This document shows positions 1 through 42,771 of a stretch of DNA of 51,481 nucleotides, in pieces; within the stretch, counting starts at the first letter, position 1, and every line of letters begins with the position of its first letter. A program made the translations under genes and the position numbers. The notes under the pieces were generated by a model. The model saw only the letters and a list, made by a program, of their open reading frames with translations. It had not been told where the DNA came from and searched no databases. This stretch comes from an archaeon (lineage in GTDB: Archaea > Nanobdellota > Nanobdellia > Woesearchaeales > GW2011-AR9). The stretch spans positions 1 through 51,481 of the forward strand of contig JAHFSD010000003.1 in the NCBI GenBank assembly GCA_023265925.1, written 5' to 3'.

Positions 1-1511
1 GTAAGTCCATAGGTTCCTGCTTGTGCAGATGTTGGCGTCCAGCTAAAAGTGGCAGTGCCATCCCAATGATTGACTAAACCAGCTCCTGCTGGCCAGCCGC
101 TCGTGGCAAAAATTAAAGCATCGCCATCCGCGTCCGTTGCCGAAACGGTAAATTGTAATAGTTCTCCTTCGTCCACACTTTGATCATCAACTGGTGCAAC
201 GACAGGAGCATTGTTAGTGTTGAGGACAGTAATCGTAACCGTCTCTAAATCATATAAAGCAGCACTATCCATCGCCCGGAAGGTTACTTGATGTTGTCCG
301 GCCTGGGTCAGAGTTGGCGTCCAGCTGAATTGTCCGGTTTGCTGATTAAAAGCTGCCCCTGTAGGGAGATTCGTTGATTCTAATGAGAAAGCATCACCAT
401 CAGGATCGCTGGCAGAAACAGTAAATTGCAGGAGTTGTCCTTCGCTTACCTGTTTATTGCCAATTGGATTCAATACCGGTGCACGATTAGTATTGGCTAC
501 CGTAATCGTATAGCTTTGTGTAACCGTACCTATTCCATCAGCAACCTGAACCGTTACGTCATGCTGTCCGGTCTGGTCAAAGGTCGGCGTCCAGCGCACC
601 ACATTGTTGGGCGTTAAGCTCATTCCTGCCGGCCCGGCCATCAGGGAAAAAGTCAAAGCATCTTCAGCATCGGCATCGGTTGCCGTGAGCGGATAGACAT
701 AATAAGCATTTTCTTTTCCCGGCGTAACCGGCGTAGAAGTAAATACGGGCAACCTATTGACGTCATTCACGGTAAAATCAGCATATTCCCAATTTCCAAA
801 GCGTTCTCCATCAAAAGCATGGAGGCGCATTCCTGCCGTTCGTTCGGCATTAGGATGTTTCACGAAATCAAATCCGGGCGTAAAGCTTAATGCGCCGGTC
901 TGTTGATTAAAAGTCATTCCTGGCAATAATCGGTTCTGGGAGGAAGGGGTAAATGCTTCCGCAACATTGCAGAGCCAGACACCTTTACAGTCACGCCGGG
1001 CAACATAGGTAACAGCATCGCCGTCAGCATCAGAGCCGGAAGCGGTTAATGCCAGCGTTGCCCCTTCATTGAGTTCCTGATCCGCGACCGGATTCATGGT
1101 GGGGGAGGTTTCGACGTGAAGATTGAGCCAGGCCGTCGAATCGCCATCAACATTGAGAACATGGACACGGACAAGATAATCACCAGCCAAATCACTGGTA
1201 GGAACATTAAAGGTTTGGAAATAGTTTGAATTTAAATTTGCCGGAACAAAGGTCTGGATGACTTCTTGTACCACCGTATTTCCCCGTAATACCTGTATCC
1301 AGAGGGCAAAATCGTTGGTGCTCGTGACCAAAACAAATAAGGGCGGGCTTTCACCCTGTGCAACAGCAATGGAATTGGTATTGCCGTCAGTCCATAAACT
1401 GGTCACAGCTATCGAATCAGCATAGGCAATGGAGGCGACTGTTGCCATCAGCATCACTAAACTGATTGTCCAGGCGATGATGTTTCGTGAGTTTCGTGAT
1501 GGTGTGTTCAT
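1..1511 (-). CDS. Secreted surface protein with tandem cadherin/putative-Ig (He_PIG-like) repeats; truncated at window start
   Basis: Hand-translated minus frame (not in the ORF track because it runs off the edge): MNTPSRNSRNIIAWTISLVMLMATVASIAYADS signal peptide, then at least 4 repeats of about 93 aa with DQxVxEG...SATDxDGD...FSWTPT motifs. GAGGA SD precedes ATG 1511; an upstream in-frame ATG lies at 1550. Confidence 0.8.
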   Translation of the reverse strand, partial: MNTPSRNSRNIIAWTISLVMLMATVASIAYADSIAVTSLWTDGNTNSIAVAQGESPPLFVLVTSTNDFALWIQVLRGNTVVQEVIQTFVPANLNSNYFQTFNVPTSDLAGDYLVRVHVLNVDGDSTAWLNLHVETSPTMNPVADQELNEGATLALTASGSDADGDAVTYVARRDCKGVWLCNVAEAFTPSSQNRLLPGMTFNQQTGALSFTPGFDFVKHPNAERTAGMRLHAFDGERFGNWEYADFTVNDVNRLPVFTSTPVTPGKENAYYVYPLTATDADAEDALTFSLMAGPAGMSLTPNNVVRWTPTFDQTGQHDVTVQVADGIGTVTQSYTITVANTNRAPVLNPIGNKQVSEGQLLQFTVSASDPDGDAFSLESTNLPTGAAFNQQTGQFSWTPTLTQAGQHQVTFRAMDSAALYDLETVTITVLNTNNAPVVAPVDDQSVDEGELLQFTVSATDADGDALIFATSGWPAGAGLVNHWDGTATFSWTPTSAQAGTYGL

Positions 1512-11409: not shown

Positions 11410-12878
11410 AGTTCAGGGTTAAAGACATGGACATTGCCACCGGCGGAACGCTGGTAGCGATTCTGAACAAGAAAGATGCCCGCCATCTGGATCTGCATAG
11501 CGGCGATCGTATTCTGGTGAAAGATGGAAATAAGGAAGTGCCCTGCATCCTGGACATCTCGGAAAGCAAGAAGGCTGTGCCAGAAGGAAAGATCGGCCTG
11601 TTTGAAGAAGTGTTAACCCGCCTGGGCGTGCACAGCGGGAGCATCATCAACATTAAGCTGACGGGAAAGCCGGAATCCGTTGCCCATATCCGCGACAAAC
11701 TGTATGGAAAACGGCTCAGCTATCAGGAACTGTACCACATCATGGATGATATTACCCATGATCGCCTGACCGACATCGAAAAAACGTACTTTGTCGCCGC
11801 TGGCTTTGCTAACGGCTTTACCCATGAAGAAGTAGTCGATATGACCAGAGCGATGGTGCATACCGGAAAGAAATTGAAATTCCCGGGCACGGTCGTTGAC
11901 AAGCATAGTATCGGCGGCATTCCGGGCAACCGTACGACCATGATCATCGTTCCCATTCTGGCTGCTGCCGGCTTTACCATGCCTAAAACCAGTTCCCGGG
12001 CGATAACTTCCCCGGCCGGCACGGCCGATACGATGGAATGTTTAGCCAATGTGGAGCTGACCGAAGAGCAGATTCAGCGTGTCGTCCGGAAAACCGGAGC
12101 CTGCATGGTCCATGGCGGCAGCATGAGTTTAGCGCCGGCCGACGATAAAATTATTGAAGTCGAGCATCCGCTCAGCATTGATGCCGAAGGGCAGCTGTTA
12201 GCGTCGGTGATGGCCAAAAAATATTCGGTCTCGGCCAAGCATGTGCTGATTGACATTCCCATGGGCAAAAGCACTAAAGCGAATAGCTGGGCGAAGGCCA
12301 ATCATCTGAAGAAAATGTTTGAATTGATTGGGAAGAAATTGGGAATGAATATTCACGTGATTATTACCGATGGCTCTCAGCCGATTGGCTATGGCGTCGG
12401 CCCGTTACTGGAAGCGCGTGATGTTCTGGCGATATTACGAAATGATCCCCAGGCGCCACCGGACTTAAAGAAGAAGGGCCTGATGATGGCCGGGGTATTA
12501 TTAGGCATGACCGGGAAATATAAAGACGGGCAGAAGAAAGCCCGCGAAATCCTGGAAAGCGGCCAGGCCTGGAAGAAGATGAATGAAATCATTGATGCCC
12601 AAGGCCGGAAAAGACTGCCGCCCCTGGGAGAATTTTCCTATCCGGTACGCAGTGGAAAGATTGGAAGGGTGCGGGGAATTAACACTGAAATCATCGCCAA
12701 GATTGCCCGGATGGCCGGTGCACCGGATGACAAGGGCGCGGGATTACACCTTCGCAAAAAGGTGCATGATCTGACGCAGAAAGGCGATTTGCTTTATACG
12801 GTCTATGCGGAAAGCAGGTTTAAGTTAGAGCTGGCCAAGGAAATGGGGAGGCAGAATTGCGGGTATCTGGTTGGATGA
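11406..12878 (+). CDS. AMP phosphorylase (archaeal thymidine-phosphorylase family)
   Basis: DKHSIGGIPGN, KTSSRAITSPAGTADTME, SVMAKK, QPIGYGVGP and C-terminal GAPDDKGAG; N-terminal double-psi-barrel-like domain typical of AMPpase. Confidence 0.93.
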   Translation: MKFRVKDMDIATGGTLVAILNKKDARHLDLHSGDRILVKDGNKEVPCILDISESKKAVPEGKIGLFEEVLTRLGVHSGSIINIKLTGKPESVAHIRDKLYGKRLSYQELYHIMDDITHDRLTDIEKTYFVAAGFANGFTHEEVVDMTRAMVHTGKKLKFPGTVVDKHSIGGIPGNRTTMIIVPILAAAGFTMPKTSSRAITSPAGTADTMECLANVELTEEQIQRVVRKTGACMVHGGSMSLAPADDKIIEVEHPLSIDAEGQLLASVMAKKYSVSAKHVLIDIPMGKSTKANSWAKANHLKKMFELIGKKLGMNIHVIITDGSQPIGYGVGPLLEARDVLAILRNDPQAPPDLKKKGLMMAGVLLGMTGKYKDGQKKAREILESGQAWKKMNEIIDAQGRKRLPPLGEFSYPVRSGKIGRVRGINTEIIAKIARMAGAPDDKGAGLHLRKKVHDLTQKGDLLYTVYAESRFKLELAKEMGRQNCGYLVG

Positions 12879-23638: not shown

Positions 23639-26600
23639 CTACGGCTTCCTTCTCACCATCATCACCATCACTCCCAGCAGCACCGCCATGAAGACGAGCA
23701 CGACAAAGGCGGCCAGCAGGAATAAGTAGGTGTCAGTATCGCGGAAGGAAGTGCTGACTCTGACATCCGGCTGAGACTGAACAGCTTGCCTTGCCTGCAA
23801 CTGCTTCTGCATCTCGTCGGCTAACTTCTGGCTGGCCACGTCAATGACGACTTCTTTCTTCTGCTCCGCAGGCTGAGCAGTTGTTCCCGGAGTCGTTGTT
23901 GGCTGAGCACAGGCTTTGACTTCCAGGCTTACCTCTTTCGTATCATCTAGTTTTCCATCACGATAGACTTCGACGGTAAGCGGATAGGTTCCGGCAGGAG
24001 CGTTCTCGGCATTGACTGAAAACAAGACCCGCTGCTCGTTATCGTTGCCAGCAAAGTCGTCCAGTTCAATGTTGCGTTTAGCCTGATCCAGACCTAACGC
24101 GGTATTTCTCGCTTTGATTTCCACGTCATCCTCGTTACTCTTGCCGATGTTCTGCACCGTCACTTGCAGGTTGGTCTGCCGCTGGCATTGCAACGTTGCC
24201 TGATCTAAAGTTGCGGTCTTGACGGCAACGTTGTGGTTCTCTAATTCCAATTTCACTATCTGCGTTACCATCGTGGTATGCCGCGTGCCATCTTTGGCTT
24301 CTCCTTCCACAACGATTTCCATCGTGAACTCTTCGTTACTGACATCTTCATTGCGCAGGTCGAAGTCCAGCTCAACGTCATCATCACGCCCGGACTTAAG
24401 GTCGAATTCATCGGACTCTTCTTCCAGCTCGTCTTCATTGATGTTTTTCAGCGTCACGGTAACCTGAATGTCTTCCAGGTCCTGATTAAGCTCGTTCTTC
24501 ACGTCCACCTTGACGGTATTGGTGTCATCCAGCTTAAACTTCCCATCGGTTTTGCCGTTGATTTTAACGCTTTGGACGGTTAAGAAGCTTTTGGGGTTGA
24601 GGAAGATGGGAAGATTAACTGTTCCCTGATTGCTGACAATTCTCAACGTGCCAATGGAATGTTTTCCCGAGGCTTCTCCGGCAGGAATGGTGAGGCTAAG
24701 CTGTAACGGCGTTTGTCCCCCGGCAGCGAGCGTCGAAGATAAAGTACCGGTTAATTGGGCATTGTAGGTTGCATTTACTCCCAGCAGTTGAGCACTTAAG
24801 CCGGTCAATGATTCATGTGTACCGGTATTGGAGATTGTTACCGTTGTATTTACCGCCTGTCCGGTGTTAACGTTATCGAACAAGATCTCAGTTGCCGGAA
24901 GAACTGTTAAAGCCGCTGCCCGTTCTTCCTCGACCACATAGGTGGAAAAGCCGGTAACAGTAAAGACCAATTGGCTGGCAGTATTACTGACAATCTGACA
25001 GATGGTTGCCGGACATTTGGTTAGTGTACCACTGTTAAACCCGCTGGATACGGAAATTCGCGGATTCGTAAATGGCGCAGTACGCGGTAAGGTAACAGTT
25101 GCACTTCGTCCGCCTAAACCAGGTGCAGCAGCGGTGTTAACAGCGATGGTATCTTTGTTACTTTGATGGCTGATTTGGATAACATTGTCGAGCATCAAAT
25201 TATTTTGCAGGATGCCGGTTAAGTCTACTGCCTGATTGAACGTAATCTTTCCGTTGCTGTTCTCTACCACAAATCCCTGGTAGTTGGCCGAATCTTTAGT
25301 TTCATCAAAGTTAGGGAGGTTAAGGTTGGTAGTTCTAGGCTTGTTGGTTACGGTGACATCCCAGGAATGGCTTTCCATCAAACCCAGATCAGTCTGCAGG
25401 CGGACTTCCACGGTATGCACTCCGGGCGCCAGCGTTCGCACAATGCGCATCTGCTTGGAAGAAGTTAAGCTTCCATCAATGTACCATTTCAGGAACTGCT
25501 TAAACGTTGACTCAGCAATATTAGCCTGGAAGGTAAGCATGGTGTTCGGTCGTACCAATAGTTCATCCTCGGCAGGCGTAAAAGTTGTCAGGCAATCGCT
25601 TACTGTCAAAGGAACTTCCGCGCTACTTCCCTGGAAATCGGTAAAGTCAGGATTGACCAGATAGACAAACAATTTATTTTGTCCCGGTTCAAGATTCGTT
25701 AGATTCAGGGAGAACTGGGCCGTTGCGGTCGCTCCCGGCTGCAGAGCAGTGGCACTCAAAGCTTCATTCAGCAATTCTTCGCCCGTAAATTCTCCGGCAT
25801 CGGCATCAAATTCAAATTGCTGTTCACCATAGACTAACAGTTGGGGTGTAACGGCATTATCTCCCGTGTTAGTAGCAGTTACCGTCAGATCGGTCACGCG
25901 GTTGCACGAGAGGGTATTGTCCGTCAACGTCGCCGAGGAAATCTCCACATCAGCTTCTTCCCGCACAATATTAAAAGTAAGATCAAACGTATCCTGGAAA
26001 GTGCCCTTGAAACTATTGTGGCTTAAACTCAATCGTACTGTAAAAGAATTGCCACTGACAGCCAACGGGACGGTAAAAGTAAATTCATCATCTTCCACTT
26101 CGCCGGCAAACAGGGCCCATTCCGTCGCCTGGTGGTTGACAAAATCCGTCCCGACCGTGAGATGCGCTTCTTTGCTCACGGAACCAAGCGCTTTATTGAA
26201 ATTGTTGGCAAAATTGTAGCTGACGGTGACCTGATTTCCCGGAGAGACGTTGAGCTGATCATTGGCATCAAAAATATCTCCACCGGCCTGAATTTCAACG
26301 GAGTTCTGGAGGATTTCTAAAGCCGGATCAACAGTGAGAGTAAATGTTTTTGCCGCGGAAGTGGCTTGCCCGTCCGTCACGCGCAGGTTTACCGGAGCAG
26401 AGCCTTTATCATTTGCCGTTGGTGTTCCAGTGATAGTCAATCCATTCACTGTTAGCCACGCGGGCAGGCCCGCCGGATCAATGGAAATATCAGTAACGGG
26501 GTTATCAACGTCACTGACACCAGTAGCAGGCAGGGTAAAACTAAAGGGAACAGCTTCGACTGCAGTCAGGTTGGCAATGGTTGCCGTAATGGTCGGAGCA

Positions 26601-41038: not shown

Positions 41039-41626
41039 GTGGTTTTTCGAAAGGTTTATAAAGAAGTGGGCTGGGGCAGGGAGCTACCGATGGGAATCGA
41101 ATCACAACTTAATCTGGATAGGTTGGGAAGAGCGATCTATGATCATCTTCCCCAGGAATCAGATGCCCGGCGAATTACCGGAAAAAGCCGGATTGTCAGG
41201 ATTTCTGATACCGGTAGCGGACAGCCGCGGCGAGGATTGTACTACAGTGAAACTGAACCTCTCCGTGATATTATAGGGGTGGGAAGTGAGTATGTGGGGG
41301 TTGCTCTGGAAAAGATTCGTGGCCTTTACCAGCTGCAGGAACAGCAGATTCAGCATCTCCTGCTCACCTCGGTAGAACCATTTGAGCTGTTTGTGGGTGA
41401 TGCCAGTTATGAAACTACCAAAACGTATGTGCGTCACATTGCCCAGGCACTTTTAGAACGAAGGAGTATCTACACCGGAAAAAAGCCAACCGTCTGCCTT
41501 GTCGAGCCCCAACCAGGAATCGTGCAGCGGTTTAACGCTGCCTATGATCAATTTGAGTTGCGGTTTGTCCCGGCAACACGATATCATGAAATGTTAGATG
41601 TGAATTTATCCGGGCCGGGCCGCTGA
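41039..41626 (+). CDS. Hypothetical protein
   Basis: 195-aa ORF filling the gap between gatD and the tRNA; the start codon is uncertain. Confidence 0.6.
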   Translation: MVFRKVYKEVGWGRELPMGIESQLNLDRLGRAIYDHLPQESDARRITGKSRIVRISDTGSGQPRRGLYYSETEPLRDIIGVGSEYVGVALEKIRGLYQLQEQQIQHLLLTSVEPFELFVGDASYETTKTYVRHIAQALLERRSIYTGKKPTVCLVEPQPGIVQRFNAAYDQFELRFVPATRYHEMLDVNLSGPGR

Positions 41627-41659
41627 AATTGGACAAGCTGCTGAATTTCTTCGTTAACC

Positions 41660-41667
41660 TTTTAAAT
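41660..41667 (+). promoter_or_regulatory. TATA box of tRNA-Leu
   Basis: TTTTAAAT about 25 nt upstream of the tRNA 5' end. Confidence 0.6.
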
Positions 41668-41691
41668 CACACCATAATCATAGCTGAAGAT

Positions 41692-41926
41692 GCGGGGGTG
41701 GGAGAGCCTGGCCAAATCCGCTAGAGGGTAAACAACCTGGCGAACTTGAGGGGCTAGTCCCTTAGAGCCTTTCAGAGAAAGCCTGAGAAAGAGGCTTGCC
41801 TGAACGGCGAGGAGTGGGTACGCGTGTTCAAAGGCCAGTTACACTAGGCGAGTCGTACTCAGGTGGGGCATAAAGCCCCACGACACTGACAAATAGTGTA
41901 ACGGTGTGAAAGTCACGTCCCCCGCA
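41692..41926 (+). tRNA. tRNA-Leu (GAG) with three non-canonical introns (41725-41744, 41766-41814, 41833-41912)
   Basis: Exons 41692-41724, 41745-41765, 41815-41832 and 41913-41926 join to an 86-nt type II cloverleaf: acceptor gcggggg/cccccgc, anticodon ctagc-TT GAG GG-gctag, T arm gcgtg-ttcaaat-cacgt, A73. Each junction forms a BHB-like motif. Confidence 0.88.
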
Positions 41927-41970
41927 CTTTTACTAAAACTATTTAAAGAAGGGAAATTTCTGCTTACCCC

Positions 41971-42771
41971 ATGAAACCCCGCTGGGAACTCACTCAGGAA
42001 ACTAAAACCCTCCCTAAACTAGACCGTCCCTTATTCATCGAAGGGCTTCCCGGCATCGGCAACGTCGGCAAGATCGCCGTCGATTTCCTGGTCGATGAAT
42101 TTAAAGCCGTGAAACTGTACTCTTTTTTCTGCACCAAGTTTCCCCACTCGGTGTTTGTGAATGACCAGAACCTGGTGGAAATGCCCAAGATCGAGCTGTA
42201 CTACAAAAAATTCAATGGCGAGGGAACGCGGGACCTGCTGCTGCTGACGGGCGACATCCAGCCCATCGACGAAGAAAGCTGCTTCACGTTCTGTGAGGAG
42301 ATCCTGACCATCGCCAAGCAATTTAACTGTTCTGAAGTTATTACCACGGGCGGCATTGGCATGCAGCATGTCCCGGACAAGCCGCGCGTTTACTGCACCA
42401 GCAACGATGCGGCTTTGTTGAAAGAGTATGCCCAGCCGGGATTGGGAGTAGAGAAAACGATTTTTGGCGTGGTAGGGCCGATCATCGGCGTTTCCGGCGT
42501 GCTGATTGGCCTGGGCCGGAAACGCGGTGTGAAAGGCGTGGCCTTGCTGGCTGAGACTTTTGGCCATCCGATGTATCTGGGCATCAAGGGAGCACAGGAA
42601 ATGTTGCGTGTTTTAGAGGGAAAATACCATTTAGGCATCAGCCTGCAGAAGATGGGGAAAGAAATCATCCGCCTGGAGCAGGAGCTGATGAAGAAAACCA
42701 AAGAGTGGGCGCAGGTGGCCGAGCAGGCCGGAGCGAAAGCCCGGCAGAAAGAAGCAGGGTATATTGGGTAA
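41971..42771 (+). CDS. Proteasome assembly chaperone PAC2-family protein
   Basis: EGLPGIGNVGKIA, FPHSVFV, ITTGG, GPIIGVSG, CLLAET-like ALLAETFGHP. Confidence 0.92.
   Translation: MKPRWELTQETKTLPKLDRPLFIEGLPGIGNVGKIAVDFLVDEFKAVKLYSFFCTKFPHSVFVNDQNLVEMPKIELYYKKFNGEGTRDLLLLTGDIQPIDEESCFTFCEEILTIAKQFNCSEVITTGGIGMQHVPDKPRVYCTSNDAALLKEYAQPGLGVEKTIFGVVGPIIGVSGVLIGLGRKRGVKGVALLAETFGHPMYLGIKGAQEMLRVLEGKYHLGISLQKMGKEIIRLEQELMKKTKEWAQVAEQAGAKARQKEAGYIG

Follow-up and report, generated by a model that had tools for sequence, protein, structure and literature searches.

A tRNA-Leu(GAG) gene with three predicted BHB introns in a Woesearchaeales archaeon that encodes one predicted alpha-type EndA

Introduction

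Can a tRNA gene that is interrupted three times still yield a functional tRNA in an archaeon of the Woesearchaeales, and what kind of splicing endonuclease would have to process it? The question is raised by a 235-nt locus (41692-41926, +) in a stretch of 51,481 nt (contig JAHFSD010000003.1 of assembly GCA_023265925.1; the window), which an initial annotation had read as a tRNA-Leu(GAG) gene with three non-canonical BHB introns. The gene is of an already known kind, the multi-intron archaeal tRNA with BHB introns. Such genes, with introns at 30/31, 59/60 and other sites, a maximum of three per gene and transposition of introns, are classic for the Thermoproteales (PMC4033280, PMC4390854, PMC8450103), where three-intron genes are exemplified by pre-tRNA-Glu(UUC) from Pyrobaculum calidifontis as well as pre-tRNA-Pro(UGG) from P. 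islandicum (Sugahara 2007/2008; PMC4390854, PMC4033280, PMC8450103). Here we describe the spliced product, the evidence for its exon-intron borders, the origins of the three introns, and the splicing machinery encoded by the genome. Relatives are cited as G plus a number, with G000 for the genome itself, and contigs as C plus a number.

Results

The predicted spliced product is a class II tRNA-Leu(GAG)

Removal of the three introns listed in Table 1, which make up 149 of the 235 nt (63%), joins exons of 33, 21, 18 and 14 nt into an 86-nt product (GCGGGGGUGGGAGAGCCUGGCCAAAUCCGCUAGCUUGAGGGGCUAGUCCCUUAGUGGGUACGCGUGUUCAAAUCACGUCCCCCGCA) that ARAGORN calls as tRNA-Leu(gag). Its cloverleaf has a 7-bp acceptor stem, a 5-bp anticodon stem with the loop UUGAGGG, and the T-loop UUCAAAU; with a long variable arm, A73, a Leu anticodon and a 3-bp D-stem in the ARAGORN cloverleaf, it has the features of a class II tRNA-Leu. 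The 5′ end and the variable arm are shared with the other Leu genes of the genome. The anticodon, the clean cloverleaf, the exact coordinates, the three intron positions and the intron content given in the initial annotation are all borne out.

Table 1 Features of the tRNA-Leu(GAG) locus in the window and BHB geometry of its introns (shuffle rate, fraction of 200,000 shuffles of each intron with equal or better geometry)
Feature	Position	Strand	Description	H	h	h′	Shuffle rate
TTTAAA, TATA-box-like	41661..41666	+	26-31 nt upstream of tRNA position 1; read from sequence				
Exon 1, 33 nt	41692-41724	+	tRNA positions 1-30: acceptor 5′ strand, D-arm, anticodon stem 5′ part				
Intron 1, 20 nt	41725-41744	+	30/31, within anticodon stem	CGCU/GGCG (one G-U)	0 bp	4 bp, GGGU/ACCU	3.5e-5
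Exon 2, 21 nt	41745-41765	+	positions 31-47 region: C31, loop UUGAGGG, anticodon stem 3′ strand, variable arm 5′ half				
Intron 2, 49 nt	41766-41814	+	loop of long variable arm	CCUU/GAGG (one G-U)	2 bp	3 bp, onward as GCC.UUCAG/CUGAA.GGC	1.8e-3
Exon 3, 18 nt	41815-41832	+	variable arm 3′ half, T-stem 5′ strand, T-loop positions 54-59				
Intron 3, 80 nt	41833-41912	+	59/60, T-loop	UUCA/UGAA	5-bp T-stem	GCC/GGU past 3x1 internal loop	1.9e-2
Exon 4, 14 nt	41913-41926	+	U60, T-stem 3′ strand, acceptor 3′ strand, discriminator A73; CCA not encoded				
TTTT run	41928..41931	+	directly 3′ of gene; read from sequence				

In its unspliced form the gene receives no ARAGORN call with intron mode on or off and no Rfam match, either at the gathering score, a mode whose speed filters also passed over the intronless orthologues of G018 and G001, or at E<=1, the mode in which the orthologue of G018 matches RF00005 with 48.3 bits. 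The expectation that standard callers would miss the gene thus holds for both programs.

The locus is intergenic, with an ORF without Pfam domains (41039-41626) on one side and a PAC2-family gene (41971-42771) downstream. To judge from the sequence, the TTTAAA box would be an archaeal promoter element, and the TTTT run is likely an archaeal transcription stop. TTTAAA or TTTATA boxes lie at a similar upstream distance in the G001, G004 and G021 orthologues.

Intronless orthologues fix the exon-intron borders

BLAST searches with two queries, the gene in 60 relatives and the stretch from exon 2 through exon 3 in 300 genomes of the order, gave 26 distinct Leu genes. Twelve of these (including G018, G050, G043 and G001) lack introns and run colinear with the spliced product over all three junctions; that of G018 is 94% identical to it. 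The borders are therefore fixed by comparison and not by a structural model. Exon 1 is approximately 91-97% identical to the same stretch of the intronless orthologues, while the exon 2 stretch is 100% identical in more than 20 relatives. In G001, which belongs to the same genus, the orthologue lies directly upstream of the orthologous PAC2 gene and has none of the three introns. On contig C51 of G001 (reverse strand, just upstream of PAC2), the intronless orthologue is followed by a 60-nt insert flanked by a 46-nt direct repeat of the 3′ part of the tRNA (TTAGTGGG...CCCCCGCATTCTTTTCAC), an att-like duplication. A split or permuted tRNA gene was also considered for the present locus and rejected; the four exons are colinear, on one strand and within 235 nt.

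All three inserts lie in BHB register

The BHB register was taken as 4 nt of helix H plus 2 nt at the end of the 5′ exon, 1 nt at the start of the intron, 4 nt of H plus 2 nt at the end of the intron, and 1 nt at the start of the 3′ exon. At the borders defined by the orthologues, all three inserts form a 4-bp central helix with the splice sites 2 nt 3′ of the helix strands (Table 1), and the central helices named in the initial annotation are therefore present in the correct register. Its claim of 3-nt bulges holds for four of the six splice sites but not for the 3′ site of intron 1, which lies in a 5-nt bulge, nor for the 5′ site of intron 3, which lies in a 3x1 internal loop.

The three motifs differ in how far they depart from the strict hBHBh′ form with 3-nt bulges and outer helices of at least 2 bp. 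Intron 2, with bulges AG/A and AG/U and an h′ helix that encloses a 5-bp hairpin, is the only one near that form and conforms to it; introns 1 and 3 are relaxed, a form already known among archaeal BHB introns. In intron 1, the 5′ bulge AG/A is a clean 3-nt bulge between the 4-bp H and the 4-bp h′, whereas the 3′ site AA/C sits inside a 5-nt bulge closed by merely 2 bp that use G34 and A35. By the strict rule its h helix has 0 bp, which makes it a relaxed BHB of the HBh′ type.

Orthologues fix the borders independently and shuffled introns rarely reproduce the BHB geometry (Table 1), which excludes chance as its source. When the borders were moved by up to 6 nt, a fit was found in only 0-2 of 168 cases per intron. 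Enumeration of BHB-compatible excisions followed by an ARAGORN filter left one solution among 101 length-compatible combinations, and this solution has the coordinates of the initial annotation.

The minimum-energy fold of the 235-nt precursor has a free energy of -98.5 kcal/mol (z = -3.9) and a closed acceptor stem. A fold forced to hold all three BHB cores lies just 5.4 kcal/mol above it, so no obligatory order of splicing is implied. At intron 1, a competing 6-bp helix (CGCUAG/CUGGCG) is approximately equal in energy to the BHB conformer (-7.3 versus -7.6 kcal/mol) and occurs in the unconstrained minimum-energy fold. In these computed structures intron 1 is the weak point.

Two of the three introns belong to wider families

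Intron 1 has no paralogue in the genome, none of the other 25 Leu genes in the comparison carries it, and by sequence it is an orphan. An unrelated intron is found at 29/30 in G224.

Intron 2 also lacks a paralogue in the genome. Its homologues occupy the identical variable-arm site (UCCCUUAG/UGGG) in Leu genes of other genomes, namely Leu(GAG) of G004 and G021 from the same family, Leu(CAG) of G036 from a second family, and Leu(UAA) of G136 from a third. The first 33 nt are the same in G004 and G136, while the copy of the present genome differs at six positions. The tree of the intron is at odds with that of its hosts, which points to mobility and not to vertical descent. In the Leu(CAG) gene of G036 (C9, locus ~1369-1624, +) the homologue, of 45 nt, is one of four apparent inserts; the others lie in the D-arm (~28 nt), the anticodon loop (~57 nt) and the T-loop (39 nt). 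If these candidate inserts are introns, the gene would carry four, against a published maximum of three for archaeal tRNA genes.

The body of intron 3 consists of a 9-bp P1 helix (GUUACACUA/UAGUGUAAC), a GUCG/CGAC helix and a UGGGGC/GCCCCA hairpin. The intron belongs to a family with at least nine copies at 59/60 in the T-loops of other tRNA genes in this genome (on C5, C34, C37, C51 and C55, with three copies on C37 and two on C55), one of the genes with a T-loop element being the tRNA-Ser(UGA) on C34. Another copy lies in the anticodon loop of tRNA-Ala(UGC) (C44, ~12190-12266, -), so that the family holds at least two different tRNA positions. In addition, three fragments are found outside T-loops, at C5:50027-50080 (-), C14:50522-50541 and C27:13844-13880. 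The first is identical to intron 3 of the Leu(GAG) gene at 54 of 54 nt; the third adjoins, in inverse orientation, a duplicated 3′ end of tRNA-Ala(CGC). The family is present in at least 11 of 60 relatives and had no match in the same-genus G001.

Compensatory changes in the family alignment support the 9-bp closing helix, the GUCG/CGAC helix and the variable-loop hairpin. The fourth pair of the H helix at 59/60 covaries with T-loop position 57, being A57-U (UUCA/UGAA) here; G030 and the C55 Val gene have G57-C (UUCG/CGAA) instead. Many T-loop copies also have relaxed motifs, with just three pairs in the H helix. Rfam gave no match on 41600-42000 at E<=1, including to a group I or II ribozyme core, and inserts of 20-80 nt are too short for self-splicing introns of either class, which were rejected. 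No C box (UGAUGA) was found inside the introns by eye. A K-turn at the internal loop of intron 3 was likewise rejected, the GA/GA arrangement there being unlike that of a canonical K-turn.

Over the 26 Leu genes, at least eight intron positions are seen and the number of introns ranges from zero to three or four per gene, which together with the 12 intronless genes indicates fast intron turnover. On an evolutionary reading of these sequences, the introns would be recent, turnover-prone passengers, intron 3 being one of the copies by which a structured element has come to occupy many tRNA genes of this genome.

The sequence comes from a metagenome-assembled genome (MAG) of 57 contigs, and one may ask whether a chimeric contig or a binning error has mimicked an interrupted tRNA. 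We regard such an artefact as barely credible. The locus is well within a 51-kb contig and in a gene order conserved in relatives, with PAC2 downstream, homologous introns occupy the same sites in independent assemblies, and a chimera would not give BHB geometry at three inserts.

The gene appears to be the sole decoder of CUY codons

No second tRNA-Leu(GAG), which if intact was one part of what the initial annotation had named as telling against it, turned up in the assembly, which is 86% complete. Elsewhere in it, 12 uninterrupted GAG anticodon-arm patterns occur, all in non-tRNA contexts. One candidate, a 79-nt 'Leu(gag)' solution at C23:13686-13829 (+), was rejected; its position 73 is G, neither its 5′ end nor its variable arm is of the Leu type, and many alternatives score equally. 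That locus, a 144-nt class II-like tRNA with at least two inserts and conflicting automated anticodon solutions, is probably a tRNA-Ser. The whole assembly holds four Leu-type genes, with anticodons TAG, GAG, CAA and TAA. CUU and CUC make up 25% of its Leu codons, and the Leu(GAG) gene appears to be the sole decoder of CUY codons. A tRNA-Leu(CAG) was not found in the assembly, yet CUG is the commonest Leu codon (37%).

A scan anchored on the acceptor stem and T-arm located 39 tRNA loci, whose spans have a median of 144 nt; across the genome Rfam finds 8 tRNAs and ARAGORN approximately 16. All but three of the anchored loci (36 of 39) span more than 95 nt, Leu(GAG) being the longest, and splicing of such inserts must therefore be routine in the organism. 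At least 36 of the 39 loci are taken to be interrupted. We use locus spans alone as evidence, and not intron counts per gene, because the relaxed solver, which allows three of four H pairs, is permissive: it returned many alternatives per locus and some wrong isotypes, such as 'Pro(agg)' for the Ala(UGC) gene on C44.

These data bear on the possibility that the locus is a decaying pseudogene, into which mobile DNA has inserted and whose RNA never matures, with CUY codons read by Leu(UAG) or by an unassembled copy. The incomplete assembly leaves room for such a copy, the same-genus relative has none of the three insertions, the intron 3 family also occurs as fragments outside T-loops, and the motif of intron 1 is relaxed and faces a competing helix. 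Even so, we consider a pseudogene improbable. The exon sequence is intact throughout and agrees with that of the orthologues, no helix of the cloverleaf is lost, the TATA-like box and the T-run are retained, and all three inserts lie in BHB register far beyond chance. The assembly offers no other Leu(GAG), and inserts cannot mean gene death in a genome where at least 36 of 39 tRNA loci, including the single-copy Trp, Met, Cys and His genes, are interrupted likewise.

A single EndA that by alignment has no insertion at the known loop sites

EndA is encoded by one gene (C53, ~25240-25725, -; PF01974, 1.8e-29; PF02778, 8.8e-19), whose product of approximately 197 aa from MAKKQ onward combines an N-terminal with a C-terminal endonuclease domain and carries the Tyr/His/Lys triad. 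Its best solved relatives are the alpha subunit of N. equitans and the alpha4 enzyme of M. jannaschii, to which it aligns without gaps. Relative to the latter, no insertion is present at the N. equitans loop site or in the aligned N-terminal region. Six residues that the basic loop of N. equitans has in addition (K93-R97; 'L3' in Kaneta 2018) are missing from it, and we place this loop between the catalytic Tyr and His on the basis of the text, and not the figures, of PMC3488258 and PMC5829648; the Tyr-His spacing is 10 residues as against 16 in N. equitans. The segment FRVYDRG(V/I)KPG(E/Q)DHA is invariant in 11 relatives. Close relatives of the protein were found in MAGs that carry the label Candidatus Woesearchaeota or Nanoarchaeota, and groundwater is the source of many of these. 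In most members of the family the N-terminus is extended by 20-80 Lys/Glu-rich aa that include the conserved motif EAAE(P/T)ETS.

Neither a beta subunit nor a second EndA was found in the genome at E<=1; as the assembly is 86% complete, it may lack an accessory subunit. Among 40 relatives, exactly one PF01974 gene is present in 38, including single-contig genomes estimated to be 100% complete, and none in the other two. Given the single gene in these relatives and the absence of a loop insertion, the enzyme is most simply read as an alpha4 homotetramer without known specificity loops, and from its sequence we predict that it is presumably an alpha-type homotetramer. CSL, ASL and NEQ-type loops have been linked to cleavage of relaxed motifs (PMC5829648, PMC3488258), and the initial annotation had expected a broad-specificity endonuclease. 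The EndA type can now be named, but alpha is not among the types known for broad specificity, and the genome encodes no (alpha-beta)2 or epsilon2 EndA with a CSL, ASL or NEQ-type loop. The Lys-rich N-terminal tail might provide extra RNA affinity.

The ligase RtcB (PF01139) is encoded over two contig ends, at C3:7-657 (+) and C30:1-549 (-); as far as can be seen, this split reflects an assembly gap and not a broken gene.

With such an enzyme, intron 1 might be cut only after introns 2 and 3 have left and the tRNA body has refolded, or with a helper factor, the gene itself being functional. The h helix of intron 1, which reaches 2 bp only with a 5-nt bulge and the use of the anticodon bases G34 and A35, and the lack of an insertion at the known loop sites of EndA fit such a delay, which we nevertheless judge unlikely to a similar degree as a pseudogene. 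The fold with all three BHB cores costs little, intron 1 has at its 5′ site a clean 3-nt bulge flanked by two 4-bp helices, and M. kandleri splices relaxed HBh′ introns in vivo although its enzyme is without a specificity loop (PMC5829648).

Discussion

Taken together, the data make it highly probable that 41692-41926 (+) is a functional, single-copy tRNA-Leu(GAG) gene whose three introns would be removed by the alpha-type EndA and RtcB, the splicing being predicted from the sequence. A precursor of approximately 235 nt would be transcribed from the TATA-like box about 30 nt upstream. Each insert would pair with its flanking exon to form a BHB-type motif, the three motifs coexisting with a closed acceptor stem in the computed fold. 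The sole EndA, presumably a homotetramer of the alpha type, would cut the six sites, and, by analogy with established archaeal tRNA splicing, RtcB would ligate the four exons into the 86-nt class II tRNA while the introns would probably be released as circles. Archaeal LeuRS is reported to recognize the loop of the variable arm, among other parts of the tRNA; in the precursor, this loop would arise only after removal of intron 2.

Like the Thermoproteales, the present genome combines up to three BHB-type introns per gene, non-canonical positions including 30/31 and 59/60, a mixture of strict and relaxed motifs, and a wealth of interrupted tRNA genes that standard callers miss. In contrast, the host is not a crenarchaeon but a DPANN archaeon of the Woesearchaeota type, and its one alpha-type EndA is without a CSL, ASL or NEQ-loop insertion, whereas the Thermoproteales have an (alpha-beta)2 enzyme with the CSL. 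Unlike the three-intron Thermoproteales genes named above, the tRNA is of class II and one of its introns lies within the loop of the variable arm.

Translocatable tRNA introns were described in Thermoproteales by Fujishima et al. 2010 (summarized in PMC4033280 and PMC4390854), and the situation here is similar in that different tRNA species of one genome share near-identical introns, which are not confined to a single position. As of a 2015 review, no translocatable intron was known in the class II tRNAs, Leu and Ser (PMC4390854). Introns 2 and 3 of this tRNA-Leu depart from that statement in belonging to multi-host or multi-copy families, and tRNA-Ser(UGA) departs from it as well.

Within DPANN, alpha4-type EndA has been associated with more tRNA disruption, and tRNA sets are incompletely predicted, probably hiding disrupted genes (Kaneta et al. 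2018, PMC5829648). The organism resembles ARMAN-2 and N. equitans in belonging to a DPANN lineage with many non-canonical introns (PMC5829648, PMC3488258). Its enzyme differs from those of both: ARMAN-2 has a three-unit epsilon2 enzyme with the ASL, and N. equitans has alpha and beta subunits and a basic loop (residues 90-98), as opposed to a single alpha gene that aligns ungapped to the M. jannaschii alpha4 enzyme.

Three features go beyond the literature with which we compared the locus. Both introns of the family type reside in a class II tRNA, one of them within the loop of the variable arm; a single EndA without insertion at known loop sites is accompanied by relaxed motifs in two of three introns; and the Leu(CAG) gene of a relative appears to exceed the published maximum by one insert. 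It is possible, although on balance rather doubtful, that a whole DPANN order of the Woesearchaeales type splices dense multi-intron tRNAs with a loop-less homotetrameric alpha4 EndA, and that mobile introns have colonized its class II tRNAs, including a family that targets the variable-arm loop common to Leu isoacceptors. If this is true, interruptions would affect more than 90% of tRNA genes, the number of introns per gene reaching three here and, it appears, four in a relative, with part of the motifs relaxed, and the proposed rule by which enzyme architecture and loops co-evolve with tRNA gene disruption would be broken. The Lys-rich N-terminal tail of EndA might then be a compensating feature.

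Genomes of this lineage will seem deficient in tRNAs without intron-aware curation, as Kaneta et al. 2018 (PMC5829648) foresaw for DPANN. In a single conserved tRNA gene, the orthologue series shows clearly how fast introns come and go; it also provides an instance of mobile introns in class II tRNAs, including one that lies within the variable arm. The precursor, whose three intron positions offer two relaxed BHB motifs and a near-strict one, is a test substrate, and the resemblance of EndA to the narrow-specificity M. jannaschii type bears on whether relaxed motifs require loop insertions.
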